Positions 24,108 through 64,000 of a DNA stretch of 64,000 nucleotides are shown in pieces. Within the stretch, counting starts at the first letter, position 1, and each line of letters starts with the position of its first letter. The position numbers and the translations under genes are program-made. The stretch lies in the NCBI GenBank assembly GCA_963805625.1, contig CAWDVE010000019.1, positions 512,001 through 576,000 of the forward strand, in the 5' to 3' direction. The stretch is from an uncultured Candidatus Rokubacteria bacterium. Lineage in GTDB: Bacteria > Methylomirabilota > Methylomirabilia > Rokubacteriales > DASRDR01. The notes below the pieces were generated by a model. It had not been told where the DNA came from, made no database searches, and saw only the letters and a program-made list of their open reading frames with translations.

Positions 24108-25685
24108 ATGAGCACCCAGGAGAACACGCGCCCGGCGCCGACGCTCGGCCTCACCCCGGATGAGATCGCGGTCCGCTACGCGACGCTCCAGGCGAAGCTG
24201 GTCCCGCTCTGGAAGTCGATCGCCAGCCTGAACCGAGATCCCCAGACGATCGTCGTCGTCCCGTCGATCACGCTCGACGCGCTGAACATGCCGTCGTCCG
24301 TGCTCCAGGCCATGGAGGAGCGCTTCCTCTTCATGCTCTTCCTGCTCCGCCAGCCCAGCGCGCGCATGATCTACGTCACGTCGCGGACGATCTTGCCTGA
24401 CGTGGTGGACTACTACCTCGGGCTCCTGCCCGGAGTCATCCCGGCCCATGCGCGGGCCCGCTTCTTCAATCCGGTGCCCCACGACAGCACGTTGCGGCCC
24501 CTGTCGCTCAAGATCCTCGAGCGGCCGAGGCTTCTCGCCCAGATCCGGGACCTCATCCCGGACAAGGACCGCGCCCATCTCGTGCCCTACAACACCACCG
24601 AGCTCGAGCGGGACCTGGCGATCCGGCTCGGCATCCCCATGTACGGCGCCGATCCCCGGCACTTCGAACTGGGAACCAAGAGCGGCTGCCGGAAGCTGTT
24701 CGGCCGGGCCGGCGTCTCGTATCCCTTCGGGGCCGAGGACCTCCGGACCGCCGACGACGTCGTCGAAGCCATCCGCCGGCTCCGGGCCGCGCGACCGGGG
24801 GTGCGGTCGGCGATGGTCAAGCACAATGAGGGCGTCTCCGGGGCGGGCAACGCGGTGGTGAAGCTCGAGGGGCTGCCCCCGCCCGGCGACGCGGCCGAGC
24901 GCGCCGCCATCGTGGAACGGGTCGACGCGATGCAGTTCGAGAGCCCGCGCCAGCGGTACGATTCGTACATGGCCAAGCTCGGCGAGCTGGCCGGGATCGT
25001 CGAGGAGCGGGTCATCGGCGAGGAGATCCGGAGCCCGAGCGTCCAGCTTCGCATTACGCCGCTCGGCCAGCTCGAGGTGCTCTCCACGCACGACCAGGTG
25101 CTCGGCGGGCCCAGCGGACAGAGCTATCTCGGCTGCCGCTTCCCGGCAGATCCCGCCTACGCGGCGGTCATCACGCGGGACGCGGTGAAGGTGGGGCAGG
25201 AGCTGGTCGGAGAGGGCGTCCTCGGGCGCTTCGCCTTCGACTTCGTGGTCGTCCGGAACGGCGGGGCCTGGACGCCCTACGCGATCGAGCTGAACCTCCG
25301 GAAGGGCGGGACGACCCACCCGTTCCTGACGCTCCAGTTCCTGACCGACGGGAGGTACGACCCCGAGGCGGCGACGTTCACGCCGCCGAGCGGTCGGCCG
25401 AAGTGCTTCGTCGCGACGGACCATCTCGAGTCGGAGCTGTACCGCGGCCTCCTGCCGCAGGACGTCTTCGACATCATGGTGCGGCACGGGCTCCACTTCA
25501 ATCAGACGAGGCAGACCGGGGTCGTGCTCCACATGCTGACAGCGCTCTCGGAGCGGGGGCGGCTCGGACTCACCGCCGTCGGCGAGTCACAGGCGGAGGC
25601 CGACGAGATCTACCAGCGGGCCGTCGACGTCCTCGACCGTGAGGCCGAGGAGGCCATGCGGCAGGACCCGCTGCCGGCGCTGTGA
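24108..25685 (+). CDS. ATP-grasp peptide/amide ligase, PGM1-related
   Basis: VVVPSIT, EERFLF, KHNEGVSGAGN, SPSVQ, STHDQVLGG, AIELNLRKGGTTHP. Confidence 0.75.
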   Translation: MSTQENTRPAPTLGLTPDEIAVRYATLQAKLVPLWKSIASLNRDPQTIVVVPSITLDALNMPSSVLQAMEERFLFMLFLLRQPSARMIYVTSRTILPDVVDYYLGLLPGVIPAHARARFFNPVPHDSTLRPLSLKILERPRLLAQIRDLIPDKDRAHLVPYNTTELERDLAIRLGIPMYGADPRHFELGTKSGCRKLFGRAGVSYPFGAEDLRTADDVVEAIRRLRAARPGVRSAMVKHNEGVSGAGNAVVKLEGLPPPGDAAERAAIVERVDAMQFESPRQRYDSYMAKLGELAGIVEERVIGEEIRSPSVQLRITPLGQLEVLSTHDQVLGGPSGQSYLGCRFPADPAYAAVITRDAVKVGQELVGEGVLGRFAFDFVVVRNGGAWTPYAIELNLRKGGTTHPFLTLQFLTDGRYDPEAATFTPPSGRPKCFVATDHLESELYRGLLPQDVFDIMVRHGLHFNQTRQTGVVLHMLTALSERGRLGLTAVGESQAEADEIYQRAVDVLDREAEEAMRQDPLPAL

Positions 25686-25748
25686 GCCCGCCGGCCGCCC
25701 AAGCGGACCTGTCCCCGATCAAACTCCGCGCGACGCGAGCGTAGCCCG

Positions 25749-26246
25749 GTGAGCGAGAACTGGTCGGACCCGGAGCTGCTTCGCGCCGTCTTCGAGGGTA
25801 CCGAGGTCCTCCGGAAGCCGATCAGCGGGATCATCACCGGACACCACGTGCTTCCGTACGTTCTCGTCGGGCCCCACTGGGACCAGCCCGGCCGGTCGGT
25901 GGAGGTGCGCGGCCGGATCCGCGTCTCTCCCCGCCTCGTGGTTCCCGTCCGCACGGACGGCCCGACCTATGGCGACGTGTTCTCGGACCGAGAAGTGATG
26001 CACCAGGCGCTCGTCGCCCGGGTCTTCAGCTTCAAGTACGCGCCGAAGGTGCTCGTCGAGAGCGAGGACCTCCGCATCCAGCGTCAGGACCGCGCGCCGC
26101 AGGCGCACCTCGAGCTGGTCCTCGACGAGCTGCTCCGCCAGGAGGTCATCAACACCGGTGTCATCCGCTCCCCGGACGTCCGCTACTATCCCGTGTCCAT
26201 CGACCGGTTCATCCGGGAGATCCTCGATCAGGAGTTCCGCGACTAG
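25749..26246 (+). CDS. conserved hypothetical protein
   Basis: 165 aa globular-looking ORF with strong GC3 bias; no motif recognised. Confidence 0.7.
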   Translation: MSENWSDPELLRAVFEGTEVLRKPISGIITGHHVLPYVLVGPHWDQPGRSVEVRGRIRVSPRLVVPVRTDGPTYGDVFSDREVMHQALVARVFSFKYAPKVLVESEDLRIQRQDRAPQAHLELVLDELLRQEVINTGVIRSPDVRYYPVSIDRFIREILDQEFRD

Positions 26247-31983: not shown

Positions 31984-33395
31984 GACTCGGGCCCCTCCAC
32001 GGGAAGCGTGAACGCGAAGCAGCTGCCGTGCCCCTCCTGGGACTCGACCCAGACCCGCCCTCCGTGGGCCAGGACGAAGCCTTTCACGATCGCGAGGCCT
32101 AGGCCCGTTCCGCCCCGCTCCGTGTGAGCCTGCTCGTAGCGCTCGAAGACGGTCGTCTGGAGATTGGCCGGGATGCCGATCCCGGTATCGGAGACCTTCA
32201 CCACGACATCGTGATCGACGACCTCGGCGTGGAGGGTGATCAGCCCGGCGGCCTTGCTAAACTTCACCGCGTTCGCCAGGAGGTTCACCAGGACCTGGTG
32301 AATCCGTTTCGCGTCCAGGACGAGCTTCGGGATCGAGTCCGACACCGTGACCTCCAGATGCAGGCTGCGGTCCTCGGCCCACGGCCGGATCTCGTCCACC
32401 GCGTCCTGGATCAGGGAGGCCACGTCGGTGGGATCGAGGTCGAGCTGGAGCTTGCCGGTCTTGAGCTTGCCCAGATCGAGGAGCTGGTTCACCAGGCTCA
32501 GGAGACGGGCCGTGTTCATCCGGATGTTCTCGACGAGCGACGCCTGACGGTCGCCCAGCACGCCCGGCGCTCCCTTCCCGAGCCGCTCGGCCGACCAGTC
32601 GATGACCGTGAGCGGTGTCCGCAGGTCATGGGTGATCGCCGAGAAGAGGTGCTGCTTGAGGGTGTCGAGCTCCCGGAGCCGCGCTGCCATGCGGTTGAAG
32701 CCGCTCGTCAGCTCGGCGATCTCGTCACTCCCGCGGACGGGGATGGGCTCGGAGACCTTCCGTCGCTCGACGTCCCACGCTGCGGCTCGGAGCTCCCGCA
32801 GGGGGCGGGCGATCCTCAGGCTCGCGAACAGAGCGATTGCGAGGGACACCGCCAGGCTGGTGACGATCGCGAGGAGCGCCACGAGCCGGCTCTGCTCCTC
32901 GAGGCGTCCCACCACGGCTCCGCGCTGGCGCAGCTCAGTGCTGGATTGCCCGTAGAGTCGCTGGACCAGCGTCTCGAGCTGCACCGCAGCCTGCTCGACA
33001 CCCGCTTTCTCGGCCGGTGGACGCTCGCCAACCATCCGGTAGCGGCGAAGCTGCTCGGCTGCGCCCGCAAGCGTCTGGCGCTCCTCCGGTGTCGAGACCA
33101 GGTCGCCCAGGGTGGACAGGTCGCCCTCGATTGCGCGAGCGCGCTCGGCGAAGAGCCGCACGTAGGCGGCGTCGCGGAGGACCACGTGGCGCGCCTCCAG
33201 GCGGCGAAGCGCGGCGACTCCCTCCAGAAGGCCGACCTCCAGTCGAACCGCGGGCAGCGCGCGCTCGATGATGGCGCGGTTCTCGGCCGTCAGCCGTCTC
33301 GTCGTGAGGAGGCTCCACCCGGCGAGGGACAGTACCACCCCCGTGAGCAGGGCGAAGGCCAGGAAGAGCTTGTGGCTCAATCTGAGTGCTGGCAC
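31980..33395 (-). CDS. HAMP-domain sensor histidine kinase (GlrK/QseE-like)
   Basis: Two TM helices, HAMP, THDLRTPL H-box, NLLANAVKF, DTGIGI, GTGLGL. Confidence 0.88.
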   Translation of the reverse strand: MPALRLSHKLFLAFALLTGVVLSLAGWSLLTTRRLTAENRAIIERALPAVRLEVGLLEGVAALRRLEARHVVLRDAAYVRLFAERARAIEGDLSTLGDLVSTPEERQTLAGAAEQLRRYRMVGERPPAEKAGVEQAAVQLETLVQRLYGQSSTELRQRGAVVGRLEEQSRLVALLAIVTSLAVSLAIALFASLRIARPLRELRAAAWDVERRKVSEPIPVRGSDEIAELTSGFNRMAARLRELDTLKQHLFSAITHDLRTPLTVIDWSAERLGKGAPGVLGDRQASLVENIRMNTARLLSLVNQLLDLGKLKTGKLQLDLDPTDVASLIQDAVDEIRPWAEDRSLHLEVTVSDSIPKLVLDAKRIHQVLVNLLANAVKFSKAAGLITLHAEVVDHDVVVKVSDTGIGIPANLQTTVFERYEQAHTERGGTGLGLAIVKGFVLAHGGRVWVESQEGHGSCFAFTLPVEGPES

Positions 33396-33421
33396 CGGAC
33401 GGAGCCCTCCTGCACTCCACT

Positions 33422-33437
33422 TACAAGCCGGATGCCA
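33422..33437 (-). promoter_or_regulatory. possible sigma-54 promoter for the kinase-lipoprotein pair
   Basis: Minus strand TGGCAT-CCGGC-TTGTA (GT rather than GC at -12). Confidence 0.35.
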
Positions 33438-33715
33438 GATGGCACCGGTATCTTGTGGGCCAGGAAGTCTTGGTCTCTCGCGGGGTTCGGCGCCAGGGAC
33501 ACTCGACGCTGGTACCTGCGCCGGCCGCCGGGGGGGTCTCTCCTGACGAAATACGGGAAGCGGCTGGCCCGAATGCGACCGGTATCATTGTCGGGGGGCT
33601 CGGTAGGAGTCGCCACAGGAGAAACCGGGGCGTCCCAGGGCCCAGGCTCTCGGGGCCATGGGTCCGGATGCTAGACTTCGTGGAGGGCCCGCGCCGTCGC
33701 GCGGTCCGGTACGCC

Positions 33716-34948
33716 ATGAGGAGCCGCGAGACCCAGACCGCACGGTCGTTCCGCGCGTCAGGAGGCCTCCCTGGGGCCCTCCGAGCCGATCCACGCACAG
33801 GGACGTTCTGGATCCGGCAGGCGGTCCTTCTCCTCGGGCTGGCTCTAGCCCTTTTGACGATCCCCGTCAGCTCCCTGGCTCAGGGAGGCGCGATCCTCCG
33901 GATCCTCGACCGTGCGTCCCTCCTCGATGACGGCGATCCGGACTCGCTCCGCACGGCGGTGGCGCAGAGCCTCGCCTGGCTCGACCGGCAGCCGGGCGGA
34001 CGCTGGCTCGCGTTCGGCCCGCGCCGCGTGACGGCCGGAGAGTACGCAGCGGGGCTGCGCCGGCTGCTCATGCTGCTCGCCGGGAATCCACCTCCGGAGA
34101 TGCTCGAGGAGCGTGTCCTCGCCGAGTTCGACGTGCTGTCGGCCATCGGGCGGGCCGACGGCGCGGTCCTCCTGACCGGATACCACGAGCCCGTGGTCGA
34201 CGCCTCGGACCGGCCGAGCCCCCAGTACCCCGTCCCGGTTCTCGGGCTGCCGGCGGGCTTCACCGGCGGCTGGCGATATCCCCGCTTCCTGAGCCGGGCG
34301 GAGATCGAAGCCGGCCGGCTCGGAGCGGCGGCCCGGCCTCTTGCGTGGGCCCGCGACCCGGTCGACGTCTTCTTCATGGAAGTGGAGGGGAGCGGCACCC
34401 TCCGCTTCCCGGACGGGCGCCAGATGCGCATCGGCCCCGCGGCCACCAACGGTCACCCGTACCGGTCGATCGGGCGCCTCCTCATCGACGAGGGGCGACT
34501 TACCGAGGAGACCGTTTCCATGGACGCGATCCGCTCGTGGCTCGTGGAGAATCCGTCGGAGCGCGCCCGCGTCCTCCGGTACAACCAGTCCGTCGTCTTC
34601 TTCAGGCGGCTCGAGGGGCCTCCTCTCGGGAGCCTCGGCGTGCCGCTCACCCCGGCCCGCTCCATCGCCACGGACGCGCGGCTGTTCCCGGCCGGTGGGC
34701 TTGCATTCGTCCGGACAGAGCGCCCGTTGCGGCTTTCCGACGGACGGGTAGGCTGGAGCCCGGTCAGTCGATTCGTCCTCAACCAGGACACGGGCGGAGC
34801 CATCCGCGGCCCGGGGCGCGTCGATCTGTTCTGGGGGCGCGGCGACGATGCCGAGCTGGCGGCCAGCCAGATGAAGCAGCTCGGCGAGCTGTACTTCCTC
34901 GTGCCCAAGCCCTCTCGCCGGGTCGTCGCGGCTCCCGCCCAGCCCTGA
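33716..34948 (+). CDS. mltA: membrane-bound lytic murein transglycosylase A (copy 1)
   Basis: LTGYHEP, FFMEVEGSG, NGHPYRSIG, QDTGGAIRGPGRVDLFWG. Start uncertain. Confidence 0.88.
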   Translation: MRSRETQTARSFRASGGLPGALRADPRTGTFWIRQAVLLLGLALALLTIPVSSLAQGGAILRILDRASLLDDGDPDSLRTAVAQSLAWLDRQPGGRWLAFGPRRVTAGEYAAGLRRLLMLLAGNPPPEMLEERVLAEFDVLSAIGRADGAVLLTGYHEPVVDASDRPSPQYPVPVLGLPAGFTGGWRYPRFLSRAEIEAGRLGAAARPLAWARDPVDVFFMEVEGSGTLRFPDGRQMRIGPAATNGHPYRSIGRLLIDEGRLTEETVSMDAIRSWLVENPSERARVLRYNQSVVFFRRLEGPPLGSLGVPLTPARSIATDARLFPAGGLAFVRTERPLRLSDGRVGWSPVSRFVLNQDTGGAIRGPGRVDLFWGRGDDAELAASQMKQLGELYFLVPKPSRRVVAAPAQP

Positions 34949-35558: not shown

Positions 35559-35843
35559 GTGGCGGGCGCAGCGGGCATCGTGATCGTCGTGGGCCGCGAT
35601 CAGAGGGAGCTCTACGAGTACTTCCGGTGGGGCTTCGGCCAGACGGCCGGCGTGGAGGTCGTCCTCGACCGCCGGCTCGGAGAGCGCCGCGGCCGTCGGA
35701 ACGGTCACGGGCCGCCGGACGACCGCCGAAAGTCCGATCGGCGGCGGGCCGCCGCCACGCGAGCCGAGCTCCTCGCGCGCGGCTTCCTGATCGCCCGGCG
35801 CGATCCCCGCGCCGGGGCACGGGACTGGGGGACGCTCCGATGA
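35559..35843 (+). CDS. small hypothetical protein with repeated DRR/ERR motifs
   Basis: IVIVVGRDQRELYEYF...VEVVLDRRLGERR...DDRRKSDRR...ARGFLI. Confidence 0.65.
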   Translation: MAGAAGIVIVVGRDQRELYEYFRWGFGQTAGVEVVLDRRLGERRGRRNGHGPPDDRRKSDRRRAAATRAELLARGFLIARRDPRAGARDWGTLR

Positions 35844-35941
35844 GCCCACAGGCCACCACAGACCGAAGGCCGTGCAATCGCCGTTCGATCGACTCCCGCA
35901 GAGCCCCACAGGCGGAAGGCCGTCCAAGGATAGCCCGATGA
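35840..35941 (+). repeat. 102-bp dispersed intergenic element, copy A (33-codon mini-ORF)
   Basis: 84/102 nt identical by manual alignment to 63186-63287 (-); internal repeat of consensus CCACAGGCCGAAGGCCGTCCAA; flanked by direct repeat CCGATGAGC (35837-35845, 35935-35943). Confidence 0.85.
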
Positions 35942-37335
35942 GCGACGTCGAGCTCGGGTTCCTCGGAATCGCGGAGCTCGGCCCCCGGCTGGCTGCCCGG
36001 TCGCTCTCGCCCGTCGAGCTCTGCCAGGCGCTGCTCCGGCGCTGTCAGCACCTCGAGCCCACGCTGAACGCGTTCATCACGCTGGACGCCGAGCGCATCC
36101 TGGCCGAGGCGCGCGTCGCCGAGCGAGAGCTCTCGGCCGGTCGCCCCCGGGGTCCGCTCCATGGCGTACCGGTGGCCGTCAAGGATCTCTGCTGGACGCG
36201 AGGCGAGCGCACGACCGGGGGCTCCAAGGTCTTCTCGGGTTTCGTGCCCGAGGAGGACGCGAGCGTCGTGGCCCGGCTCAGGGAAGCCGGCGCGATCGTC
36301 TTCGGAAAGACCAACACGCCCGAGTTCGCGTACGGTCCGCTGAACGCGTATCACTACGGACCGTCCCGGAACCCCTGGGATCCGGCGCGGTTCACCGGCG
36401 GCTCCAGCATGGGCGCGGCGGCAGCCCTGGCCGGTGGCCTGGCTCCGGGTGCGCTCGGGAGCGACACGGGCGGGTCCATCCGCGGTCCCGCACACTGGTC
36501 GGGGGTCACGGGGCTCATGCCGACGTACGGGCGTGTCCCGCTCCGCGGAGTCGTCGCGCTGGCGACGACTCTCGATCACGTGGGTCCGATGACCCGCTCG
36601 GCGCTCGACGCGGCCCTCCTCCTGCAGGTTCTCGCCGGCCACGACCCGCTCGACTCGACATCGGTGGACGTACCCGTTCCGGACTACGCTCGCGAGACCA
36701 CGCGGTCGGTGCGCCGCCTCCGGGTGGGAGTTCCCCGCGGGTACCTCTGGGATCTCGTCGCGCCCGCGATCGGAACCGCGGTCGAGGTGGCGCTCGACGA
36801 GCTCCGGCGGCTCGGACTCTCGACCGAGGACGTGGAGATTCCGGAATGGGAGGCGGCGGCCGACGCGAGCCTCGTCCTCATCCGCTCGGAGGCCGCGACC
36901 GAGTACCGGCGGGTCCTGATGGAGCGTCCCCAGGATTTGATTCCCGAGGTGCGGGAGCGCCTCGAGGCCGGCGTGCGGACGTCGGCGGTCGAGTACATCG
37001 AAGCGCGCCGCGCGGCGGACCGCTGCGCTCACGCCCTCCGCCGGCTCTTCGCCCGGGTCGATCTCCTGGCTCTCCCCGGGCGTGCCCAGACGGCACCCAA
37101 GATGGACCCGAGCGGGCGCCTGCTGGAGCCCCTGTCGCCGCGAAACTACACCGCGCCGCTGAACTATCCGGGCGTGCCGGCTCTAACCGTCCCGTGCGGC
37201 TTCGACGCGGAGGGCCTCCCCATCGGAATCCAGCTGGTCGGAAGCCACTGGGCTGAGAGCACCCTCTTGAACGTGGCGCACGCCTATCAGCAGGCGACCG
37301 ACTGGCACCGGCGCCGGCCGCCGCTCTGCGTGTGA
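35938..37335 (+). CDS. amidase-signature family enzyme (GatA-like)
   Basis: GPLHGVPVAVKDL, GKTNTPEFA, GGSSMG, GSDTGGSIRGPA, GLPIGIQL. Confidence 0.9.
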   Translation: MSDVELGFLGIAELGPRLAARSLSPVELCQALLRRCQHLEPTLNAFITLDAERILAEARVAERELSAGRPRGPLHGVPVAVKDLCWTRGERTTGGSKVFSGFVPEEDASVVARLREAGAIVFGKTNTPEFAYGPLNAYHYGPSRNPWDPARFTGGSSMGAAAALAGGLAPGALGSDTGGSIRGPAHWSGVTGLMPTYGRVPLRGVVALATTLDHVGPMTRSALDAALLLQVLAGHDPLDSTSVDVPVPDYARETTRSVRRLRVGVPRGYLWDLVAPAIGTAVEVALDELRRLGLSTEDVEIPEWEAAADASLVLIRSEAATEYRRVLMERPQDLIPEVRERLEAGVRTSAVEYIEARRAADRCAHALRRLFARVDLLALPGRAQTAPKMDPSGRLLEPLSPRNYTAPLNYPGVPALTVPCGFDAEGLPIGIQLVGSHWAESTLLNVAHAYQQATDWHRRRPPLCV

Positions 37336-37775
37336 CGAGAGCCGCGGTGGCGGACGCCGCGCCGACGTGCAGCGCGTGCGGCGGGCGCTGGCCGGATCCG
37401 TCGGACCGGATCGCGGAGCTTCGGGAGAGCATTCTCTACCTCCACACGGACCAGTTCTTCCCCGGCTGGTCGGTCCTCGTGCTTCGCCGGCACGCAACCG
37501 AGCTCTTCGATCTCGAGCGAGAGGAGCGGGCGCGGGTCATGGACGAGGTGAGCGACGTCGCCGAGACGCTCAAGTCGGCGTTCGACGCTCGCAAGGTCAA
37601 CTACGCGCTGTTCGGTAACATGGTTCCGCACATGCACTGGCACCTGATCCCGCGCCTCGCCACCGATCCGGCCGCGCACGAGCCCGTGTTCGCCGTCTTG
37701 CACGACCCGGTCCGGCTCCCGAGGATGGAGCGCGCGGACCGGATCGCCCGGATCCGCAGCCGGCTCGGCCGGTGA
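37332..37775 (+). CDS. HIT family hydrolase
   Basis: GNMVPHMHWHLIPR histidine triad; N-terminal CxxC. Confidence 0.88.
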   Translation: MTRAAVADAAPTCSACGGRWPDPSDRIAELRESILYLHTDQFFPGWSVLVLRRHATELFDLEREERARVMDEVSDVAETLKSAFDARKVNYALFGNMVPHMHWHLIPRLATDPAAHEPVFAVLHDPVRLPRMERADRIARIRSRLGR

Positions 37776-39034
37776 GCGCTCGGTCCCTCTTCGTGCGCTT
37801 CCCGCTGGCGGGGGCGGTCGCGCTGGCCGTGAGCGTGGCGCTCGGCGCCGGCTGTGCCGCGTGGCGGGCGCCTGCCGTCATCGAGCCTGCCACGGCCTTG
37901 CGGCCGGTCAGGAACGCGCCCGCCCTCCGGGACGACGCCGATCCCGCCTCGCTCCGCGCGGCGGTCGTGGAGAGCCTCGCGTGGCTCGCGGCCCAGCCCG
38001 GAGACCACGTCTTCGTGGCAGGACCCCGCCGCGTCACGGTGGCGGAGCAGACGCGGGCGCTCCAGGGCCTGCTCGGCGTCCTGGTGGAGGCGTCGGGACC
38101 CGAGCGTCTGGCCGCGTACGTCCGCGAGACGTTCGAGCTGCTCGAGGCCGTGGGCGGACCGGAGGGACGGATGCTCGTGACCGGCTACTACGAGCCGGTG
38201 GTCGAGGCGTCCGAGCGTCCGAGCGCGGAGTACGGAGTGCCGGTTCTCGGACTCCCTGACGATCTGGTCGAGGTCCGCCTCGAGGCGTTCGATCCCCGCT
38301 ATCGCGGAGAGCGGCTATTCGGCCGAGTCGAGGGCCGGCGGCTGGTTCCGTACTGGCGGCGGGCCGACATCGCCGCGGGCCGCCTCGCCGGCCGCGGCCT
38401 GGAGCTCGCATGGGCGCGTGACCCGGTCGACGTGTTCTTCATGGAGATCCAGGGGAGCGGGACGCTTCGCTTTCCCGATGGTCGCGAGCGTCGCGTGGGC
38501 TACGCCGGCGCCAACGGCCGGGCGTACCGCGCCATCGGGCGCCTCCTGATCGACGAGGGACACGTCCCCCGCGACGCCATGTCGATGCAAGCGATTCGCG
38601 AATGGCTCCGTGTTCACCCGGGCGAGCGGCAGCGCGTGCTCCAGCACAACGAGTCCTACATCTTCTTCCGGCCGCTGTCGGGGCCGCCGGAGGGGAGCCT
38701 GGGCCGCCCTCTCACCCCCGGGCGCTCCGTCGCGACCGACGCGCGACTCTTTCCGCCCGGCACCCTGGCCTTCCTCGACACCGAGCAGCCGGAGCGGGCC
38801 CCGGACGGCACGGTCCGCTGGGTACCCCTCGCGCGCTTCGTCCTCAACCAGGACACGGGCGGCGCGCTCCGGGGCGCCGGGCGGGTCGACTTCTTCTGGG
38901 GACGCGGCGAGGCGGCGGCTTTCGCCGCGGGCCTGATGCGGCAGCCCGGCCGGCTCTACTTCCTCGTGCCCAGGGCGGCGGCCGTCGCCACGTCGGGACT
39001 GGTCCGTGAGAACGCAGGGAGCCAGGCGCCCTAG
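37772..39034 (+). CDS. mltA: membrane-bound lytic murein transglycosylase A (copy 2, lipoprotein)
   Basis: Lipobox LGAGC; VTGYYEP, FFMEIQGSG, QDTGGALRGAGRVDFFWG. Confidence 0.9.
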   Translation: MSARSLFVRFPLAGAVALAVSVALGAGCAAWRAPAVIEPATALRPVRNAPALRDDADPASLRAAVVESLAWLAAQPGDHVFVAGPRRVTVAEQTRALQGLLGVLVEASGPERLAAYVRETFELLEAVGGPEGRMLVTGYYEPVVEASERPSAEYGVPVLGLPDDLVEVRLEAFDPRYRGERLFGRVEGRRLVPYWRRADIAAGRLAGRGLELAWARDPVDVFFMEIQGSGTLRFPDGRERRVGYAGANGRAYRAIGRLLIDEGHVPRDAMSMQAIREWLRVHPGERQRVLQHNESYIFFRPLSGPPEGSLGRPLTPGRSVATDARLFPPGTLAFLDTEQPERAPDGTVRWVPLARFVLNQDTGGALRGAGRVDFFWGRGEAAAFAAGLMRQPGRLYFLVPRAAAVATSGLVRENAGSQAP

Positions 39035-43663: not shown

Positions 43664-46051
43664 TCACTCACTCGAACTCGTGGATTCCGACCCAACTGGC
43701 AGGGTGAAGGTGAACGTGGACCCCTGGCCCACCTGGCTCCGGACCCACATCTGCCCCCCGTGTAACTCCACGAACTTCTTGGCCAGTGTCAGCCCGAGCC
43801 CCGTGCCCTCGGGCCGCTGGAGGCCAGCGACCCCCACCTGGCGGAACTCTTCGAAAATTGCTGCTTGATCCTCCGGCGCGATTCCGATCCCGGTGTCGCT
43901 GACCGAGATCTCGATGACGCCATCCGAGGGCGTTGCCGTGCTGGTGACCCGCCCACCCTCAGGGGTGAACTTCACGGCGTTGGAGAGGAGATTCAGCAGT
44001 ATCTGCTTGACCTTCCGCTCGTCAGCTACGATGTCTCCCACGCGCCCGTCCACGGCCTGGGCGAGGGTGATCCCGTGCCGGGTCGCACGCTCCCGAACCA
44101 GGGTCAGCGCATTGTCGAGGGCGGTGGGCAGGTGGAAACGCCCGAGCTCCAGCTCAAGCCGTCCGGCCTCCACCTTGGAAAGGTCGAGAATGTCGTTGAT
44201 CAGCGAGAGGAGATGACGGCCGGAGGCCAGAATGTCCCGGAGGTACTCGGCCTGCTTCTCGTTCACGTCCCCGAACATCTGCTCTGCCAGGACCTCCGAA
44301 AAGCCAATGACGGCATTGAGCGGCGTCCGCAGCTCGTGGGACATGTTGGCGAGGAACTCGGACTTGTGGCGGCTAGCCGCTTCGAGTTGTCTGCCCTTGC
44401 TCTCGATCTCTCGAAAGAGACGTGCATTCTCGATCGCCAGGGCCGACTGCGCGGCAAACGTCTCCAGCAGTCCGGTCAGTTCGGCCGGGAACTCGCCCGG
44501 GTCTCGTCGCCGCACGACGAGACCGCCGATGATCCGCTCCTCTCGCACGAGGGGCACGGCAAGGAGGGCGCGGACTCCGGACTTGACCGCGAGATCGTGT
44601 AGACGTCCACCGTATGCCCCGGGCGTCAGGACGTCGGCGACCTGCACGGGCTGTCCGGAGGCCACGGCCCGCCCCACCGCTCCTTCACCGTACCGTATGG
44701 GCACCGCGCGAAGCTCAGCCACGTGCTCGTCGGTCATCCCGTGGCTGACACTCACCATGAACTGCTGGGTCGTCTCGTCGTACTCGTAGATCGTGCCCTC
44801 GTCGGCCCCGACGAGCTGCACCGCGTGCATCACGATGCTGTTGAGCACTGCCTGGAGGTCGAGGGTCGAGCTGACCGCCCGACCTATCTCAGCGAGCGCG
44901 GTCAGCCGCTGTAGCGCCTCCATGAGGTCCCGCGTTCGCTCGGCGACCCTCCGCTCGAGATTCGCGTGTGACTCCTCGAGTCGCACCGCCGTCCGGTTGA
45001 ACTCGTCGCCGAGCGTCTCCAGCTCGTCGCCGGTCCGGACCTGTATGCGGTGACTCAGATCGCCTGCGCCGATCCGCGCGGCCCCGGTCTGGAGGACGCG
45101 GATCGGGGCAACCATGCGTCGGGCCAGGAGCACGCTCGCCAGAACCGAGAGCACGAGACCGAGAGCGAAGAGAATGATGCTGCGGACGATCGAGGCCTGA
45201 AGGGGTGCGAATGCCTCGCCGAGCGGCTGCTCCACGAACACGACCCATCCGAGCGGCGCGACGGGGGCATACGCGGCGAGGAACTGCCCACCGTGCAGGC
45301 CCGGGCCCACCATGCCGACTCGCTCGTCGCCCGAGGCCGATCGAGGGCCGCGTGCGGAACGGACCTGGGGCAGGGCGGATAGATCACGCTTCTGAAGGAC
45401 CAGGCTGATGTCCGGGTGGGCGACCAGGCGGCCGAGCGAGTCGACGACGTACGCATACCCCGCCTTGCCGATCCGGATCCGGGAGACCACGTCCCAGATG
45501 GCCTTCAGGTTGACCTCGGCGACGGTGACCTCTACGCGGTATTCGGTCACGGGCACCGCGATGGTCATGTAGGGTTCGGACTCGTTCCGGAAATACACTG
45601 GGCTGAAGTACGTCGTACCAGCTCTGGCCTCGAGAAACTTCGGCGCTCGCGAGTAGTCCTCCTCGCTGCCGATGGCGTCCAGGGCCATGCGGGACACTCG
45701 AAGCCGTTCTTTTCCGGACGCGTCGAGGTGACTGATCTCGGTAATCGCCGGGACGTTGCGGAGCAGCCGGAGATAGTCGATCTCCCGCTGCTCCTGTGCC
45801 GCCACCGGATCGTCGAAGGCGGCCTGGGTCGTCCAGCGCACCTGCCGCTCGATGTCTTGGACGAACTGCTCGATCCTCCCCGCCGCCGCTACCGCTTGCT
45901 CGTGCTCGATCCGGACGAGCGCCGCCTTGGTCTCCTGGTAGGAAAAGTAAAGGTCGACCGCGCTGCTGACCAGGAGTACGCCGCCGACCAGGAGGAGGAG
46001 GACGACGACGTACTTTCGGAAGAGTCGACCTCGCGACCCTGACTCGTTCAT
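43664..46051 (-). CDS. Cache-HAMP-GAF sensor histidine kinase
   Basis: TM, dCache (YAYVVD...AHPD), TM, HAMP, GAF, SHELRTPL, NLLSNAVKF, GTGLGL. Confidence 0.9.
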   Translation of the reverse strand: MNESGSRGRLFRKYVVVLLLLVGGVLLVSSAVDLYFSYQETKAALVRIEHEQAVAAAGRIEQFVQDIERQVRWTTQAAFDDPVAAQEQREIDYLRLLRNVPAITEISHLDASGKERLRVSRMALDAIGSEEDYSRAPKFLEARAGTTYFSPVYFRNESEPYMTIAVPVTEYRVEVTVAEVNLKAIWDVVSRIRIGKAGYAYVVDSLGRLVAHPDISLVLQKRDLSALPQVRSARGPRSASGDERVGMVGPGLHGGQFLAAYAPVAPLGWVVFVEQPLGEAFAPLQASIVRSIILFALGLVLSVLASVLLARRMVAPIRVLQTGAARIGAGDLSHRIQVRTGDELETLGDEFNRTAVRLEESHANLERRVAERTRDLMEALQRLTALAEIGRAVSSTLDLQAVLNSIVMHAVQLVGADEGTIYEYDETTQQFMVSVSHGMTDEHVAELRAVPIRYGEGAVGRAVASGQPVQVADVLTPGAYGGRLHDLAVKSGVRALLAVPLVREERIIGGLVVRRRDPGEFPAELTGLLETFAAQSALAIENARLFREIESKGRQLEAASRHKSEFLANMSHELRTPLNAVIGFSEVLAEQMFGDVNEKQAEYLRDILASGRHLLSLINDILDLSKVEAGRLELELGRFHLPTALDNALTLVRERATRHGITLAQAVDGRVGDIVADERKVKQILLNLLSNAVKFTPEGGRVTSTATPSDGVIEISVSDTGIGIAPEDQAAIFEEFRQVGVAGLQRPEGTGLGLTLAKKFVELHGGQMWVRSQVGQGSTFTFTLPVGSESTSSSE

Positions 46052-47046
46052 CGTTGCAACCTGTCGGCGCGGAGCAAGACCTTCCGCGGTACCGTCAGTC
46101 CGAGGAGGTTGGCGGTCTTGAGATTCACCACGAGGTCAATCTTGTCGGCCCCTTCCACGGGCAGGTCCTGGGGGCGTGCCCCTCGCAAGATCTTCGCCAC
46201 CAACCGCGCTGCCTGAACCCCCTGCGCGTAATAGTCGGGCCCGTAGGAGACGAGACCGCCGTTGCCGACCCAGAGCGCCGCCGGAAAGACGGCCGGTATG
46301 CGGGCCGCCAGCGACGCTTCCAGGAGCACGGCCGGTATGTCCATCGTCGCGATGTCCGGGGGCAACAGTGCGTCGCCGGGTCCAAGTTCCTTGAGGGCCC
46401 GCTCGAGGTCCTCCGCGGTGCGCACCGGGCGGTCCACCACCCGAAGCTTCAACCGTGGTCCCGCTTCCTGGGCCTTCCGGGCCGCTGCCACAGAGGAGGG
46501 GTCGCCAGGATAATAAATGACCCAGATACGCTGGACGGCCGGTACGAGCTTCTGCAGAGTCTCAATGCGCTTCGGCACCAGCTCGGTGGTCAGGTTCGAC
46601 ACGCCGGTGACGTTCCCGCCCGGATGCGCGAGCTGTGCGACGATTCCGACGGCCACTGGATCTCCCACAAGGGTGAAAACGATGGGGACTTTCTGCGTGG
46701 CGTGTTTGGCTGCCCGGGTAGCAGCCTCGTTGCTGGTAAAGAGCAGATCGACCTGCGCCTTTACCAGGGCGGCCGTGGCGGCATTCGTGGCTGACGGATC
46801 GCCCTTGGTGAAATGGATGTCGAATGTGACGTCCCGGTCCTCGTCGAGCCCCAGTTCCTTGAGGCCGGCCTTGAGTCCCTCAACGGTGGGGTGGTTCGCC
46901 GTCCACGCCTCGTTGAGCACGCCGACGCGGTAGGGACGGCGCCCTTCCTCGGCGTCAGCCTTCGCGGAGAGAAGCACAAGAACGACCGCGAGTGCCCCCA
47001 ACGCGCAAATCGAGAGGAAGCGAGAAGATCTCAGCGCTGATTCCAC
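46048..47046 (-). CDS. ABC transporter substrate-binding protein (ABC_sub_bind type), orphan
   Basis: PIVF...DPV...HPGGNVTG, GGLVSYG, ILRGARPQDLPVE, NLKTA. Stop overlaps the kinase start. Confidence 0.88.
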   Translation of the reverse strand: MESALRSSRFLSICALGALAVVLVLLSAKADAEEGRRPYRVGVLNEAWTANHPTVEGLKAGLKELGLDEDRDVTFDIHFTKGDPSATNAATAALVKAQVDLLFTSNEAATRAAKHATQKVPIVFTLVGDPVAVGIVAQLAHPGGNVTGVSNLTTELVPKRIETLQKLVPAVQRIWVIYYPGDPSSVAAARKAQEAGPRLKLRVVDRPVRTAEDLERALKELGPGDALLPPDIATMDIPAVLLEASLAARIPAVFPAALWVGNGGLVSYGPDYYAQGVQAARLVAKILRGARPQDLPVEGADKIDLVVNLKTANLLGLTVPRKVLLRADRLQR

Positions 47047-47222
47047 GGGGGTGTCGGAGGGCGGGGCTTGCCAGGGTCCAGCTCCTCAGGCCACCCGATT
47101 ACGTTCTTGTCGTCCCGCCACTGGACCATGAGCGCCGCGCGATCGGAAGGCCGTCCTTGTTCGCCCGGGGGGCTGCCGATATGAATCAGTCCGCCGACCG
47201 CACGGTCACGATCAAAACTCAC
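47031..47222 (-). pseudogene. C-terminal remnant of a branched-chain-amino-acid-type ABC substrate-binding protein
   Basis: MVQWRDDKNVIGWPEELDPGKPRPPTPPWNQR resembles the QWQ...VWP...P.PPW C-terminus of LivJ-like proteins (recalled, not searched). Confidence 0.5.
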
Positions 47223-47275
47223 AAAGCCGAGGCCAACGATGGTGTCGCTGGTCTTCTTGGCGACGTAAATTCATT

Positions 47276-48244
47276 CTACTTGGTAACCCCGGCCTCTCTC
47301 ATCAGCACGCCCATCAACTCATCCTGCTCCGCCAGGAACTTGCTGAAATCGGCCGATCCCTTGTACAGGATACGGAAGGGACCATGATTCATGAGATCCA
47401 CGAACTCCTTGCTTCTGACGATCCTGCCGACAGCCTTCTCGTATACAGCCACGATTTCCGGTGAAGTGCCCTTGGGCAAAGCGATACCGCGCCACGTCCC
47501 CGTGCTGTAGTTGAGGCCCAACTCCTTCAACGTGGGGACGTTCGGGAAGGCCGGATCTCGCTTCTCCGCCATGGTCGCCAGGGCGCGAACTTTCCCGGCC
47601 TCGATCAGTGCGCGGCCCTCGACGAGGCTGGCCGTTACGACCTTTACACGGCCCGCGACCAGATCATCCAATGCGGTGGCTGCGCCCGTACTCGGGACGA
47701 ACGGCAAGGCATCAACCGGGATTCCTGCAGTCTTGAGCATGCCCGCCCGGGCCAGGTCCCAGATCCCGCCCTTGGCGGCTCCAGCGGCCCAAACTTTGCC
47801 CGGATTCGATTTCACGTAATCCAGGAGGTCTCTCAGCGTTTTCCAATCAGACGTGGTGGCAACTTGTACGCCGGCAGCATCGAGGTTGAGCAGGGCCACC
47901 GGCGTGAAGTCCTTGTAGGTGGGGATCTGTCGGAGAGGCGTCAAGTCCGTCCAGTGCAGCATGGCCAGGTCGACCGTCACCATCGTGATGGTATGGCCGT
48001 CCGGAGCAGCCGTTGCGCCAGCGGTATGGCCCAGCATGCCGCCGCCACCCTCGCGATTGACGACGGTGACCGGCTGGCCGAGCTCCTTCTCGAGGAGGGG
48101 CGCCATCATCCGGGCGATCCGATCTGTGCCGCCGCCCGCTGTCCAGGGAACGATGAATTGGACGGGTCGGCTGGGCACCTTTGGCTGAGCTGAGGCAAGC
48201 GCTGGCCATGTTGCAACCAGCGCAAGAGCCAAGATCGCAATCAC
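47276..48244 (-). CDS. tripartite tricarboxylate transporter substrate-binding protein (TctC/Bug)
   Basis: IVPWTAGGGTD, VVNREGGGG, APDGHT, VPTLKELG, WRGIALPKGT. Confidence 0.9.
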   Translation of the reverse strand: MIAILALALVATWPALASAQPKVPSRPVQFIVPWTAGGGTDRIARMMAPLLEKELGQPVTVVNREGGGGMLGHTAGATAAPDGHTITMVTVDLAMLHWTDLTPLRQIPTYKDFTPVALLNLDAAGVQVATTSDWKTLRDLLDYVKSNPGKVWAAGAAKGGIWDLARAGMLKTAGIPVDALPFVPSTGAATALDDLVAGRVKVVTASLVEGRALIEAGKVRALATMAEKRDPAFPNVPTLKELGLNYSTGTWRGIALPKGTSPEIVAVYEKAVGRIVRSKEFVDLMNHGPFRILYKGSADFSKFLAEQDELMGVLMREAGVTK

Positions 48245-48477
48245 CGCTCGGATTCTGATCCAGTGTCGCAGGGCTCTTCCTCGCTAGTCTTAGTAACGCG
48301 CCATTTGGACGACAGCGCCCTTCTGGTCTTGGTGTGCTTCAAGCGGCGCCGGTCGCCCAGGTGCATCGGATTGGCCAGCTTCGCGTACTTCCGGAAGGTC
48401 GGCGATACAAGTGCTCTGTCTGCGACCCATACCCCCAGGCAAGCATAGCCCAGCCGCTGCGCGTTACCAAGAGAGCG

Positions 48478-49915
48478 TATCGCGCCATCTAAAATGTTAC
48501 CGAGCGGAAAGAGACGCGCCATCTGGAATGTAACCCTCGAGGGCCCCGTGGCCGGAGGAGGGTTACATGATGAGTCGCCGTGCGCGGTGGGAGGTCCTCA
48601 CGGCTGTCTACCCGCGCTACCGGGGCGCGGCCCGGGTCGAGCGGGGGAGGATCCTCGATGAGTTCTGTGAGACCACGGGCTACCAGCGCAAGTACGCGCT
48701 GCGGCTTCTCAACGGGCCGCCCCCGGGCCCCGAGCGGCCCCGTCGTCGGCGGCGCCCCGCCACGTACGGGCTGGCGGTGATCCAGGCGTTGACCGCGATC
48801 TGGGAGGCCGCGGGGTATCCCTGGTCTGTGCGGTTGAAGGCGCTGCTCCCCCTGTGGCTGCCCTGGGCACGCCGGCGCCTCCGGCTGTCCGCCACCGTGT
48901 GCCAGCAGCTCCGCGCGATCAGCCCCCGCCAGATCGACCGGCGCCTGGCCGCAACCAAGCGGCAGCGCACGACGCGCCGCTATGGCGGGACCCGACCGGG
49001 CACTCTCCTCAAGCACCACATTCCGCTGAAGACCGATCACTGGGATGTGACCGTGCCGGGCTTCACCGAGCTGGACTTGGTCGCGCATGCGGGCCATCGG
49101 GCCGATGGCGAGTTCGCCCATTCCCTGAACGTCACGGACATCCACACCACCTGGGTGGAGACCCGGGCGGTCCTCGGCCGCGGCGAACGCGGCGTCCAGA
49201 CGGCCTTGGACGAGATCCGGCAGGTCCTGCCCTTCCGCCTCCGGGGGATCGACTCCGACAACGGGTCCGAGTTCATCAACCATCATCTCTACCGCTACTG
49301 CCAGGCGCAGGAGATCCAGTTCACACGCGGCCGACCGTACAAGAAGGACGACAACGCCCACATCGAGCAGAAGAACTGGACGCACGTCCGGAAGCTCGTA
49401 GGCTACTGGCGCTACGACACGCCGGCGGCGGTGACCGCGCTGAATGCGCTCTATCGGCACGAGCTCCGGCTCTTGCACAACCTCTTCCTGCCGTCGGTCA
49501 AACTCCTCAGCAAGGAACGGGTCGGCGCGCGGTTGCGCCGTCACTACGATGCTCCGCGCACGCCCCTCGAGCGGGTCCAGAGCTGCCCCGAGGCGGATTC
49601 CCAGGCGGTGCGCGAACTCGTCCGCCTACGCGATCAGCTGGATCCCTTCGCCCTGGCCGAGGCCATCGATCGGAAGATCGAGCGGCTCGTCGCCTTGGCC
49701 ACGCCCGCGCGGGTGGCGGGCGTGCCCATCCCCACGGCGGCGAACTTCCCGCCCATCATCCCGGCACCGCCGAAGCCGCACCCGGGCCGCCCGCCCGGCA
49801 CCCCGGACTTCACCTTTGCCAACCACCTACGCCGGCCCCAGGCTCGGTCTCCGAGGGTTACATGTTAGATGGCTCGACGATTCACCCCTCGGTATCTTTC
49901 TTAGATGGCTTGACA
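48478..49915 (+). mobile_element. insertion sequence with DDE (rve-type) transposase and multi-motif imperfect terminal inverted repeats
   Basis: Left end TATCGCGCCATCTAAAATGTTACCGAG...GCCATCTGGAATGTAACCCTCG matches the reverse complement of the right end TGTCAAGCCATCTAAGAAAGATACCGAG...GCCATCTAACATGTAACCCTCG. No clear target duplication. Confidence 0.75.
48567..49868 (+). CDS. DDE-type integrase/transposase
   Basis: ELDLVAH (D1), IDSDNGSEF (D2), RPYKKDDNAHIEQKN (E); N-terminal ILDEFC...GY.RKYA HTH. Confidence 0.9.
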   Translation: MMSRRARWEVLTAVYPRYRGAARVERGRILDEFCETTGYQRKYALRLLNGPPPGPERPRRRRRPATYGLAVIQALTAIWEAAGYPWSVRLKALLPLWLPWARRRLRLSATVCQQLRAISPRQIDRRLAATKRQRTTRRYGGTRPGTLLKHHIPLKTDHWDVTVPGFTELDLVAHAGHRADGEFAHSLNVTDIHTTWVETRAVLGRGERGVQTALDEIRQVLPFRLRGIDSDNGSEFINHHLYRYCQAQEIQFTRGRPYKKDDNAHIEQKNWTHVRKLVGYWRYDTPAAVTALNALYRHELRLLHNLFLPSVKLLSKERVGARLRRHYDAPRTPLERVQSCPEADSQAVRELVRLRDQLDPFALAEAIDRKIERLVALATPARVAGVPIPTAANFPPIIPAPPKPHPGRPPGTPDFTFANHLRRPQARSPRVTC

Positions 49916-50122
49916 GGGAGAGTGGCGCCAGGAGGGCGAGCCGAGGTAGAAGGAGTAGGCGCGATAGCTGTCCTTGTAGGCTTCGAAGCTGTTGGGCGCG
50001 CCGAGAGTGCACAGGGCGAGTAGCAGCACAGCGGGAACGAACAGGCGAGCAGCGTACGGCTCGAGCATCTCCCGGATGCGCCAGTGCGCCAGGATGACCG
50101 CGCTCGGAAACCCGCCGAGCAA

Positions 50123-50332
50123 TCAACCGGGCGAGCCCGGGCTCGAAGCAGAATCCGGACGCACGGGCGGTTGACGGCGGACGACCGTGACTACCACCTC
50201 GGACGGCTGGCTCTTCCGTCCGCGTGCATCGACGACCTCGAGCCGGAATCGGTGCCGGCCCAGCGGCAGTCCGGCATCGACGACCACTGTGGGCCTTCGG
50301 GTCTCAACGGGCCGGTTGGGCTCGAATCGCAT
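50123..50332 (-). CDS. small beta-rich protein (half PKD-like domain)
   Basis: LPLGRHRFRLEVVDARGRKSQP is homologous to the first half of the upstream protein. Confidence 0.7.
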   Translation of the reverse strand: MRFEPNRPVETRRPTVVVDAGLPLGRHRFRLEVVDARGRKSQPSEVVVTVVRRQPPVRPDSASSPGSPG

Positions 50333-50338
50333 ACCGGC

Positions 50339-50665: not shown

Positions 50666-50752
50666 GGGCGTGGCTCCTTTCTGCGGGCCGGCGGCGACAC
50701 GGCTTCGCCGCATACCCTGAAGGACGTCGTCATCCGAGAGCCCGGTCCGGTG

Positions 50753-51388: not shown

Positions 51389-51485
51389 GCTAGGATCTTG
51401 CGGCGATCCGGGATTTCGGGCAACCGGCGGCGGCGACGCCGGCCACGGCAGCGGTTCGCGGCGCCGCGTCTGGTACCATCGGGAC

Positions 51486-52340: not shown

Positions 52341-52355
52341 GGCGCCCGACCGGCC

Positions 52356-59160: not shown

Positions 59161-59172
59161 GGCAGTGCGGGG

Positions 59173-62109: not shown

Positions 62110-63189
62110 TCAGGCTGGCCCGGGCGACCCGGTGGCGCCGGCGCGAGCGAGGATCTCGGCCACGAGCTCCCGATGCTCGGCGCAGCCGATGACGTCCAGG
62201 TCAGGGCAGGGCCGCGTCCGCTCGACCCACCGCCGGAGAGCCGCCCGGCGCCCGCACGCCGCCTGGGCGGCGTCCGGGGTCAGCGCCCCGCTCGCGAGCG
62301 CTTGGCCCACGGCCGCGACCGCCTCAGCTCGTGTCTCGGGCTCACGGCAGACGAGGGCGAGATCGCCGCCCACGGTGAGGAACCGCGCGGCCGCGATACC
62401 GACGCCCCAGGCGCTCCTGACTGCCGCCATCTCGAGATCGTCGCTCAGGACGAGGCCCCCGAAGTCGAGCTCCCGCCGCAGGAGTCCCGCGACGACGCCG
62501 GTTGACAGCGAGGCGGGCCACTCCGGATCGAGGGCCGGGTACCGCACGTGGGCCACCATGACTGCGGGGCATCCGGCCGCGAGGGCTCGGCGGAACGGCA
62601 GCAGCTCCGTCCGTTCGAGCTCGCCGACCGGGGCGTCCACCTCTGGGAGGGCCACGTGGGAATCGAGGGGCGTCCGCCCATGACCCGGGAAATGCTTGGC
62701 CACTGGTATGAGGCCTTCCGCCAGGGCTGCGCGGGTGAACGCCGTGCCGCAGGCCGCGACCGCCTCGGCGTCCTCCGCGTACGCTCGGTCGCCGATGACG
62801 ACGCTTTCCGGGTCCGTCCGGCAATCGAGGACCGGCGTGAGCCCGGAGTCGAACCCCGCGGCGCGCAGTTCGCGGGCCATCGCTCTGGCCACGCGCCCGG
62901 CGAGCGCGGGCTCGCCCGTCCGGCCGATCGTCGCCGCGGGAGGAAAGCACGTGAATGGCGGCGGGAGGCGATGGACGCGCCCGCCCTCGTGGTCTACGAG
63001 CACGAGCACGTCTGGGCCGAGCTCGCGCGCTGCCGAGGTCAGCGAGAGGACCGCGTCGAGGGTGGGGCAGTTTCGCGCGAAGAGCACGACGCCGCCCAGC
63101 CCAGCTTCGGCGGCCAGGTCGGCGATGGCCTCCGGCAGCGCGGTGCCCTCGAACCCGAGCGCGAGGAGCTCTCCGGCGCCGGTGCTCAT
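62110..63189 (-). CDS. nagZ: beta-N-acetylhexosaminidase (GH3, NagZ)
   Basis: GVVLFARN, VDHEGGRV, KHFPGHG...DSH, SDDLEM. Confidence 0.9.
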   Translation of the reverse strand: MSTGAGELLALGFEGTALPEAIADLAAEAGLGGVVLFARNCPTLDAVLSLTSAARELGPDVLVLVDHEGGRVHRLPPPFTCFPPAATIGRTGEPALAGRVARAMARELRAAGFDSGLTPVLDCRTDPESVVIGDRAYAEDAEAVAACGTAFTRAALAEGLIPVAKHFPGHGRTPLDSHVALPEVDAPVGELERTELLPFRRALAAGCPAVMVAHVRYPALDPEWPASLSTGVVAGLLRRELDFGGLVLSDDLEMAAVRSAWGVGIAAARFLTVGGDLALVCREPETRAEAVAAVGQALASGALTPDAAQAACGRRAALRRWVERTRPCPDLDVIGCAEHRELVAEILARAGATGSPGPA

Positions 63190-63287
63190 TGGGCTACCTT
63201 TGGACGGCCTTCGGCCGGTGGGGCTCCGCGGGCGTTGATTCGACGGCGATTGGACGGCCATCGGCCTGTGGCGGCCTGCGGGTTCAC
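63186..63287 (-). repeat. 102-bp dispersed intergenic element, copy B (33-codon mini-ORF)
   Basis: Homologous to 35840-35941. GTG overlaps the ampG TGA and the TGA overlaps the nagZ ATG. One more repeat unit lies at ~63296-63325 inside the ampG 3' end. Confidence 0.85.
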
Positions 63288-64000
63288 TGGCCCGCCCTGT
63301 CGGACGGCTTTCGGCCTGTTGGCTCGCCTCGCCCGGCTGTCGGGCTGGGGGGGAGCCAGGATGCGATGAGCGGGACGAGACAGAGGCCGGGGAGCGACGC
63401 GAGAAAGGTGAGCGCGAAGTACGGGCCGTAGCCCCACCGCTCGGCGCCGATGCCGCTCACCGCGCCCGCGAGGCGGCCCGTGAACGAGAAGAGCGAGGAG
63501 AGGAACGCGTACTGGAGCGTGGCTCGCTCTGGATCGCAGACGGCTAGGAAGAATCCGAGGAACGCGGCGGTCCCGAGCCCGCCCGCGAATGAGTCGATCA
63601 TGGACGCCGCGTACAGGGCCGGCCAGGGCAGCTCCCACAGGGCGACCGCAGCGTAGCCGAGGTTCGAGACCGCCTGAGGCACGCCGAGCGCCCACAGGGC
63701 GGTCAGGGTGCCGTAGCGCTGCATGAAGGCGCCACCCGCCAGGGCCCCGGCGATCGAGAGCCCGATGCCGAGAGCCGTCGGGACCAGCCCGATCTCGAAG
63801 AGCGAGCGCCCACGGTCCACCCAGAATGGCTTAACCATCGGGCCGATCGCGAACTCGCCCAGCTTGTAGGTGAGGACGAAGAGGATGAGCGGGACCGCGC
63901 GCCAGGTGCCGATCCAGCCCACGAAGGGGGCGAGCCAGTGCCGGCGCGCCTCGGCGGGGACGTCGACCCGCGGGATCCGTCGGACTGCCAGGCCGAGCCC
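63284..64000 (-). CDS. ampG: AmpG-family muropeptide MFS permease (5' end outside window)
   Basis: LFVLTYKLGE...MVKPFWVDRG, GGLGTAAF, ATLQYAFLSSL; directly upstream of nagZ. Confidence 0.85.
   Translation of the reverse strand, partial: GLGLAVRRIPRVDVPAEARRHWLAPFVGWIGTWRAVPLILFVLTYKLGEFAIGPMVKPFWVDRGRSLFEIGLVPTALGIGLSIAGALAGGAFMQRYGTLTALWALGVPQAVSNLGYAAVALWELPWPALYAASMIDSFAGGLGTAAFLGFFLAVCDPERATLQYAFLSSLFSFTGRLAGAVSGIGAERWGYGPYFALTFLASLPGLCLVPLIASWLPPSPTAGRGEPTGRKPSDRAGQ

Follow-up and report, generated by a model that had tools for sequence, protein, structure and literature searches.

A dispersed, probably mobile repeat at the stop/start overlaps of Rokubacteria operons, with an internal frame predicted to relay ribosomes

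The DNA analysed here (the window) is a stretch of 64,000 nucleotides from an uncultured Candidatus Rokubacteria bacterium. It contains two 102-nt elements, copies A and B, each bridging the gap between two genes of the same orientation, together with two more degenerate members of the same kind. The features concerned, with positions counted from the first letter of the window, are:

25682..25752, + strand: copy C, a degenerate 71-nt member overlooked in the preliminary description
35559..35843, + strand: 94-aa ORF upstream of copy A, its TGA overlapping the head of copy A; no Pfam hit
35840..35941, + strand: copy A, 102 nt, a 33-codon bridging frame of the long form (doubled head, two core modules)
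35857..35875, + strand: core module 1 of copy A, GGCC-GAA-GGCC type with 2 mismatches
35907..35925, + strand: core module 2 of copy A, within a 21-nt frame-neutral module, missing in the allele of the close relative G013
35927..35943, + strand: tail of copy A, a purine-rich stretch, a second-frame TAG and then ATGA
35938..37335, + strand: amidase gene downstream of copy A (Pfam PF01425)
62110..63189, - strand: GH3 (NagZ-like) gene downstream of copy B (Pfam PF00933)
63186..63287, - strand: copy B, 102 nt, a 33-codon bridging frame leading from the ampG-like to the nagZ-like gene
63284..63327, - strand: degenerate older unit, tandem to copy B on its upstream side and within the 3' end of ampG

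Re-measurement upholds the preliminary description of copies A and B as two 102-nt elements with 33 open codons and a stop/start overlap at each end. Both terminate in a TGA overlapping ATGAGC and both are long forms that carry a second core. The recount also agrees on 18 base differences between them, which fall across 16 codons and include 2 synonymous ones; an ATG/GTG change at the start comes in addition. The ATGA in the tail of copy A is both the stop of the mini-frame and the start of the amidase gene, and this tail pairs weakly with the anti-Shine-Dalgarno sequence (-5.0 kcal/mol). The gene upstream of copy B encodes an MFS (AmpG-like) protein; the names ampG and nagZ are taken over from the preliminary description and are compatible with the MFS and GH3 Pfam families found. 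In the G013 orthologues of both copies the exact frame is lost and the frame ends at the TAG of the tail. Elsewhere in the window, two related MltA-like genes lie 3 kb apart on the + strand (33386-34948, with Pfam MltA and 3D hits, and 37772-39034), and two tandem ketoacyl-synthase-like ORFs flank an acyl-carrier-like ORF downstream of nagZ (59173-61883, - strand; judged from the translations).

Copy C has likewise lost the exact frame: its 20 codons end at the tail TAG (25742-25744), 4 nt ahead of the downstream GTG (25749). Its site is a plain ATGA overlap in the relative G003 and holds a longer insert in G013. The older unit in ampG, for which the C-termini of relatives were compared, is read as an AmpG-like C-terminal tail because its head is CGA and not TGA.

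Copies A and B belong to a much larger set. A profile built from core matches gives 79 hits of at least 12 bits, a threshold that misses degenerate copies such as copy C, in 67 loci of the source genome (G000) and none in the reversed genome, so the family is not a product of chance. The 19-nt core with at most one mismatch occurs 34 times in G000 and is present in 13 of 14 congeners; the count across the genome and its relatives that the preliminary description proposed does turn up many more copies. It is also present in one other genus (G019, 362 copies) and absent from five further genera, and the doubled-head pattern is seen in 11 of 14 congeners and in none of 46 other relatives. Exact searches of 185,579 genomes returned 35 loci for head plus core, 34 of them titled Rokubacteria or Methylomirabilota, and 88 matches for the core, with 76 of the 80 listed carrying those titles; among the matches listed (80 of 88 for the core) none is titled as a mycobacterium. 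The flanks of the single Actinomycetota-titled match are almost identical to those of a Rokubacteria hit, and its title is therefore probably a matter of labelling. Rfam at the gathering threshold, IMG/VR, plasmids and phages gave no match to the repeat, and the literature searched, with subscription papers mostly beyond its scope, holds no account of it in Rokubacteria. The repeat is a real, well-supported dispersed family, separate in sequence and, as far as these exact searches show, all but restricted to Rokubacteria.

A copy opens with an RTGA head and at least one 10-nt head unit; the GGCC-GAA-GGCC core comes next, followed by variable middle units of 14 nt and by the tail, which closes with GGTAGCCCAGTGA. 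Head-to-tail lengths range from 42 to 146 nt with modes at 60 and 84 nt. The master form is a 60-nt frame, corresponding to a 56-nt insert, and accounts for 26 of 73 head-to-tail copies; the second mode (9 of 73) is the master plus 10 and 14 nt, and both the 84- and the 102-nt forms carry added internal modules. The preliminary description had taken 102 nt to be a fixed length, which does not hold, with single-step relays spanning 21-141 nt. Head-to-tail tandems of the repeat occur, and the 21-nt core module is also found inserted alone, after a start codon or within another repeat (loci L077 and L081); about 10 of 35 loci examined read as short N-terminal additions of this lone-module kind. 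In G019 most of the cores are nested in large palindromic repeats that belong to other families, as judged from 52 matches within 304 kb around the listed hits. At least three such families host the core there (L041-L060), one of them with long C-run and G-run arms, and several likewise end at start codons. Conservation of the hairpin core is good, with 200 of 268 exact, and variation is greatest at the middle base of the loop (24 of 268); only five compensatory pairs were seen, in a set with a background of about 13 in 52, and these give weak support. Whole copies fold no better than shuffled ones (z from +0.3 to -0.7).

Out of 192 core clusters in G000, G013 and G003, 148 have both flanks called, 43 have an uncalled flank and 1 lies at an edge; 126 of the 148 are in sense between co-directional genes, 5 are antisense and 17 mixed, where 39% is the expectation per orientation. 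Measured against baselines that are rough because genes were called with our own hexamer model covering 79% of the genome, the upstream stop is an RTGA for 77 of 98 non-redundant copies vs. 268 of 1114 element-free gaps (shared orthologues removed), so that most copies do sit at RTGA junctions, as had been supposed from the first two. Counts for headed copies leave out the 62 of 155 copies that lack a strict head. With the same rough baseline, 50 of the 77 headed copies followed by a same-strand gene lie on the upstream stop, compared with 223 of the 1087 corresponding start sites genome-wide, and the other 27 lie off any called upstream stop. Seven of 93 headed copies are at a stop with no same-strand gene called afterwards.

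With ends set by motif alone, 60 of 73 copies have a head-to-tail length divisible by three, 56 of these being open, although the set includes kin and orthologues across genomes and part of the signal is inherited from an in-frame master and from orthologues; leaving aside the 60- and 84-nt masters, 25 of 38 lengths are in frame. In a non-redundant set of 70 copies whose upstream stop is located within the head, 39 are in the relay phase, against an expected third (p about 1e-4) and against 275 of 723 (38%) among element-free junctions. When restarts are traced through these 70 copies, 37 relay exactly, 20 come to a stop no more than 10 nt from a start in the downstream frame, often at the TAG of the tail, 8 fuse and 5 fail. 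The next start is reached by 65 of the 70 as they are, by 55 after addition of 1 nt in silico (15 failures) and by 31 after addition of 2 nt (39 failures). The TGA, the TAG and the start codon of the tail occupy three different frames, which accounts for this tolerance of frame shifts. Among copies shared by G000 and G013 that differ in length, 11 of 24 changes are multiples of three, little above chance. It is likely, on the strength of these predicted frames, that ribosomes are relayed across the repeat. Alternatively, the repeat could be mobile and its mini-frame incidental, with the downstream gene initiated de novo at the start codon and purine-rich tail that the element provides, and with in-frame lengths as a by-product of the master. 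Such an account would accommodate the 33 of 70 copies that lack an exact relay, the orthologous alleles that switch frame, the weak pairing of the tail with the 16S end (-4.5 to -6.2 kcal/mol) and the 27 headed copies off a called stop, but it has difficulty with the in-frame excess among non-master lengths, with a common long form that adds 10 + 14 = 24 nt, with the rise from 5 to 39 failures upon a 2-nt shift and with the preference for coupled sites over available start sites, and we regard it as rather unlikely.

The peptide itself looks little constrained, which had been suggested from copies A and B alone and now extends to the family, while in-frame lengths are enriched. The core is read in all three frames (35, 21 and 14 of 70 copies), two of them within copy A alone. 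Substitutions are 31 synonymous to 61 non-synonymous, with 26% synonymous expected, and variability at the third codon position does not exceed that at the other two. Our own idea that the interior might be depleted in sense-strand stops was discarded (58 sense vs. 61 antisense). The open frames with start and stop, including a 19-codon frame common to 26 copies, could suggest a family of small protein genes, but a conserved core read in three frames largely refutes this, and given in addition the mostly non-synonymous changes and the unremarkable third position we consider such genes extremely improbable.

Sites without the repeat are recognisable among relatives. Junction A is filled in G000, G013 and G002 and a plain overlap with an upstream gene in six relatives (G006, G009, G001, G011, G005 and G003), a count that excludes G014, G004, G007, G012 and G008; a core flag at this junction in G014 was set aside, being a match with 4 mismatches that lies within the small ORF. 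The C-terminus of the 94-aa ORF falls on the overlap in five empty alleles. At junction B, G000 and G013 carry the insert, seven relatives (G012, G008, G004, G011, G001, G005 and G007) have a plain overlap, and the spacing is of another kind in G002, G009, G003 and G014. The empty alleles that the preliminary description proposed to look for therefore exist at both junctions, as plain NTGA overlaps. Genome-wide, the core is absent in G000 at 52 of 57 alignable G003 copies and at 25 of 56 alignable G013 copies, although at least two of these 25 'empty' pairs hold a degenerate copy and two are probable paralogues; for five more genomes, 17 of 26 alignable loci are empty in G000 (two of them being one site). 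Exact 56-nt inserts are seen at L074, L292 and L297. Because the empty alleles come from relatives and not from ancestors, some may be explained by loss through recombination between the end repeats. In the empty alleles L005, L007, L011 and L012 the amidase frame starts at a CTG within a CTGA overlap, which suggests coupling-dependent CTG starts. Core-free short spacers forming bridging frames occur at the ampG-nagZ junction of G003 (L030, 33 nt) and in G014 (L023); they are possibly decayed members or independent inserts.

Site occupancy also bears on whether the repeat could be a domesticated regulatory leader cassette that co-regulates the genes downstream. A short member lies at what we take, from translated ends, to be the rplP-rpmC junction in five genomes, namely G000 (contig C21, near 123925) and four relatives (L276, L277, L284 and L298); it is 45 nt long and in frame in four of the five, making this a candidate old, domesticated site. 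A few such old sites kept in frame and the conservation of the hairpin core would be in keeping with a leader, an option that the preliminary description had also entertained. Against this, the downstream genes, 102 of 118 of which have Pfam hits, fall into dozens of families with no common function, sites vary between genomes with about 95% identical flanks, and there is no Rfam match, stable fold or conserved peptide. We hold such a leader role to be very unlikely.

To see how the repeat enters its sites, its ends were compared in 27 filled/empty pairs, a small sample in which the empty sites are those of relatives, not ancestors. NTGA flanks both ends. Where the two ends differ at the position just ahead of TGA, the empty site agrees with the left one in 10 cases, with the right in 0 and with neither in 1; at the first base after TGA it matches left in 5, right in 1 and neither in 3, and at the third base right in 14, left in 4 and neither in 3. 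The informative bases of the NTGA thus track the left end only, as they would not in a target duplication. Because the match switches from left to right by the third base, the repeat probably enters about 5-6 bases into an NTGA-S-C site, where it would keep the native overlap at its left and rebuild the downstream start at its right with a GTGAG of its own. A native left and an element-borne right start imply that there is no true target duplication. The 9-bp direct repeat reported for copy A (35837-35845 and 35935-35943; copy B is without one) is present, but its reading as an insertion footprint finds no support in this comparison, under which its left occurrence is native and its right one a variant of the tail. 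Unlike these usual ends, three other loci (L128, L182 and contig C20 of G000 near 37303) have the first 20-25 nt of the downstream gene duplicated on both sides.

The search for a mobiliser covered Y1 transposases, IS110, reverse transcriptase and neighbouring genes. The linked RAYT/IS200-type transposase that had been considered was not found: none of 10 Y1/RAYT loci carries the repeat, and G019, with its 362 cores, has no Y1 hit. The Y1/RAYT-type genes of the genus (L199-L208) have an unrelated inverted repeat of their own, of 26-42 nt, which brackets all five examined; several seem to share one conserved locus, and the G000 gene looks truncated. Thirty IS110 loci from a longer list, scanned by motif, gave only isolated weak matches, with ends not common to the repeat. 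One genome, G008, has 39 IS110-type transposase matches vs. 0-10 in other genomes of the family. Neither the sole reverse transcriptase of G000 nor the 118 downstream neighbours showed a link to the repeat. Our guess, held with low confidence, is that an enzyme reading hairpins in single-stranded DNA could act in trans. RNA data were available from four runs with small shares. One identical 272-nt contig from RNA library X1 spans copy A, but the contigs are strandless, DNA carry-over is possible and X1 has no long near-identical piece over 44001-64000; the contig therefore shows the sequence in a second data set and not its transcription.

Taken together, we think it probable that these copies represent a non-autonomous and likely mobile repeat, dispersed over operons in which it occupies stop/start overlaps of 4 nt. 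Operons likely tolerate it there because ribosomes, as predicted, restart across a junk frame. A ribosome finishing the upstream gene would restart on the head of the repeat, read the short frame and restart again on the start codon that the repeat supplies. From the tail sequence, all three frames would deliver it, by the TGA overlap, by the TAG 4 nt before the start or by in-frame fusion, and such a tail could let copies survive slippage of the 10-, 14- and 21-nt modules. The preliminary idea of a non-autonomous repeat that avoids polarity thus keeps its footing in the further copies, the RTGA sites, the in-frame lengths and the empty alleles, and loses the fixed 102 nt. In practical terms, inserts of this kind lead annotation to call spurious small genes and spurious N- or C-terminal extensions, and their variability suffices for strain typing. 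Of more specialist interest are the ends that lack a duplication, the tail that serves three frames and the 21-nt module that also occurs free.

How does this repeat compare with known small elements? REP/BIME sequences associated with RAYT transposases have a short GC hairpin with a GNA-type loop, and insertion of the IS200/IS605 type takes place just 3' of a short motif without duplication. The repeat resembles these systems in its GC hairpin with a GNA-type loop and in duplication-free insertion 3' of a short motif, and differs from REP/RAYT in being strand-oriented, in its place at start codons and in the lack of a long palindrome and of any association with the 10 Y1 loci. Among other elements, the accessible part of one account describes Correia, RUP and Nezha MITEs as small dispersed repeats with filled and empty sites, and neisserial REP2 as bringing a ribosome-binding site and start codon and carrying a promoter (PMC3184786). 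The repeat shares with them its small, dispersed nature and its filled and empty sites, and REP2, as described there, also supplies a start codon. In contrast to MITEs, no terminal inverted repeats, stable fold or target duplication are seen here; REP2 has its promoter, and stop/start bridging does not feature in that partial description of it.

The closest parallel in the material at hand is with the MIRUs, the mycobacterial interspersed repetitive units. According to the accessible parts of two accounts, both of which summarise the design proposed by Supply et al. 1997, MIRUs are seemingly mobile, insert at start codons and have an internal ORF coupled at -4 with little effect on expression (PMC12548453); they are 40-100 bp long, number 40-50 copies, have filled and empty sites with tetranucleotide repeats, and their ORF ends overlap the neighbouring genes (PMC3184786). 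As far as these descriptions go, our repeat shares the 40-100 bp size class, the tens of copies (67 loci here) lying between genes of operons, the direction of the flanking genes (126 of 148), an ORF of its own overlapping both neighbours at -4 (exactly so in copies A and B and in 37 of 70), filled and empty sites with a tetranucleotide on both sides, insertion at start codons and tandem units. It differs in belonging to another phylum, its exact motifs being found, among the matches listed, almost only in Rokubacteria records; in a flanking tetranucleotide that is native on the left and element-borne on the right, where that of MIRUs is described as a duplication; in a tail with a second stop and a fusion frame; and in a 21-nt hairpin module that is found inserted by itself too, and within palindromic repeats of unrelated kinds. 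Compared by description, the repeat works like a MIRU; judged on its distribution, descent from MIRUs is unlikely. The comparison also suggests that elements of this kind can have a flanking tetranucleotide without target duplication, a point that bears on how they move. A bolder idea, which we hold to be doubtful, is that the 21-nt GNA-hairpin module is the real mobile unit, moving as a single strand without duplication: here it would have built a cassette that recognises coupling junctions themselves, beyond a sequence motif, and restores the start codon through a tail that is fail-safe in all three frames, in the sister genus it would ride large palindromic repeats, and MIRU-like elements would form a convergent cross-phylum class with a shared mobiliser. 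If this were true, the filled/empty pairs of G000 and G013 would be material for finding that mobiliser. With the repeat described here, the MIRU lifestyle, which the accessible literature describes for mycobacteria, extends to Rokubacteria, and the old MIRU proposal gains counts behind it: filled/empty pairs by the dozen, a bias in frame and a peptide under little constraint.
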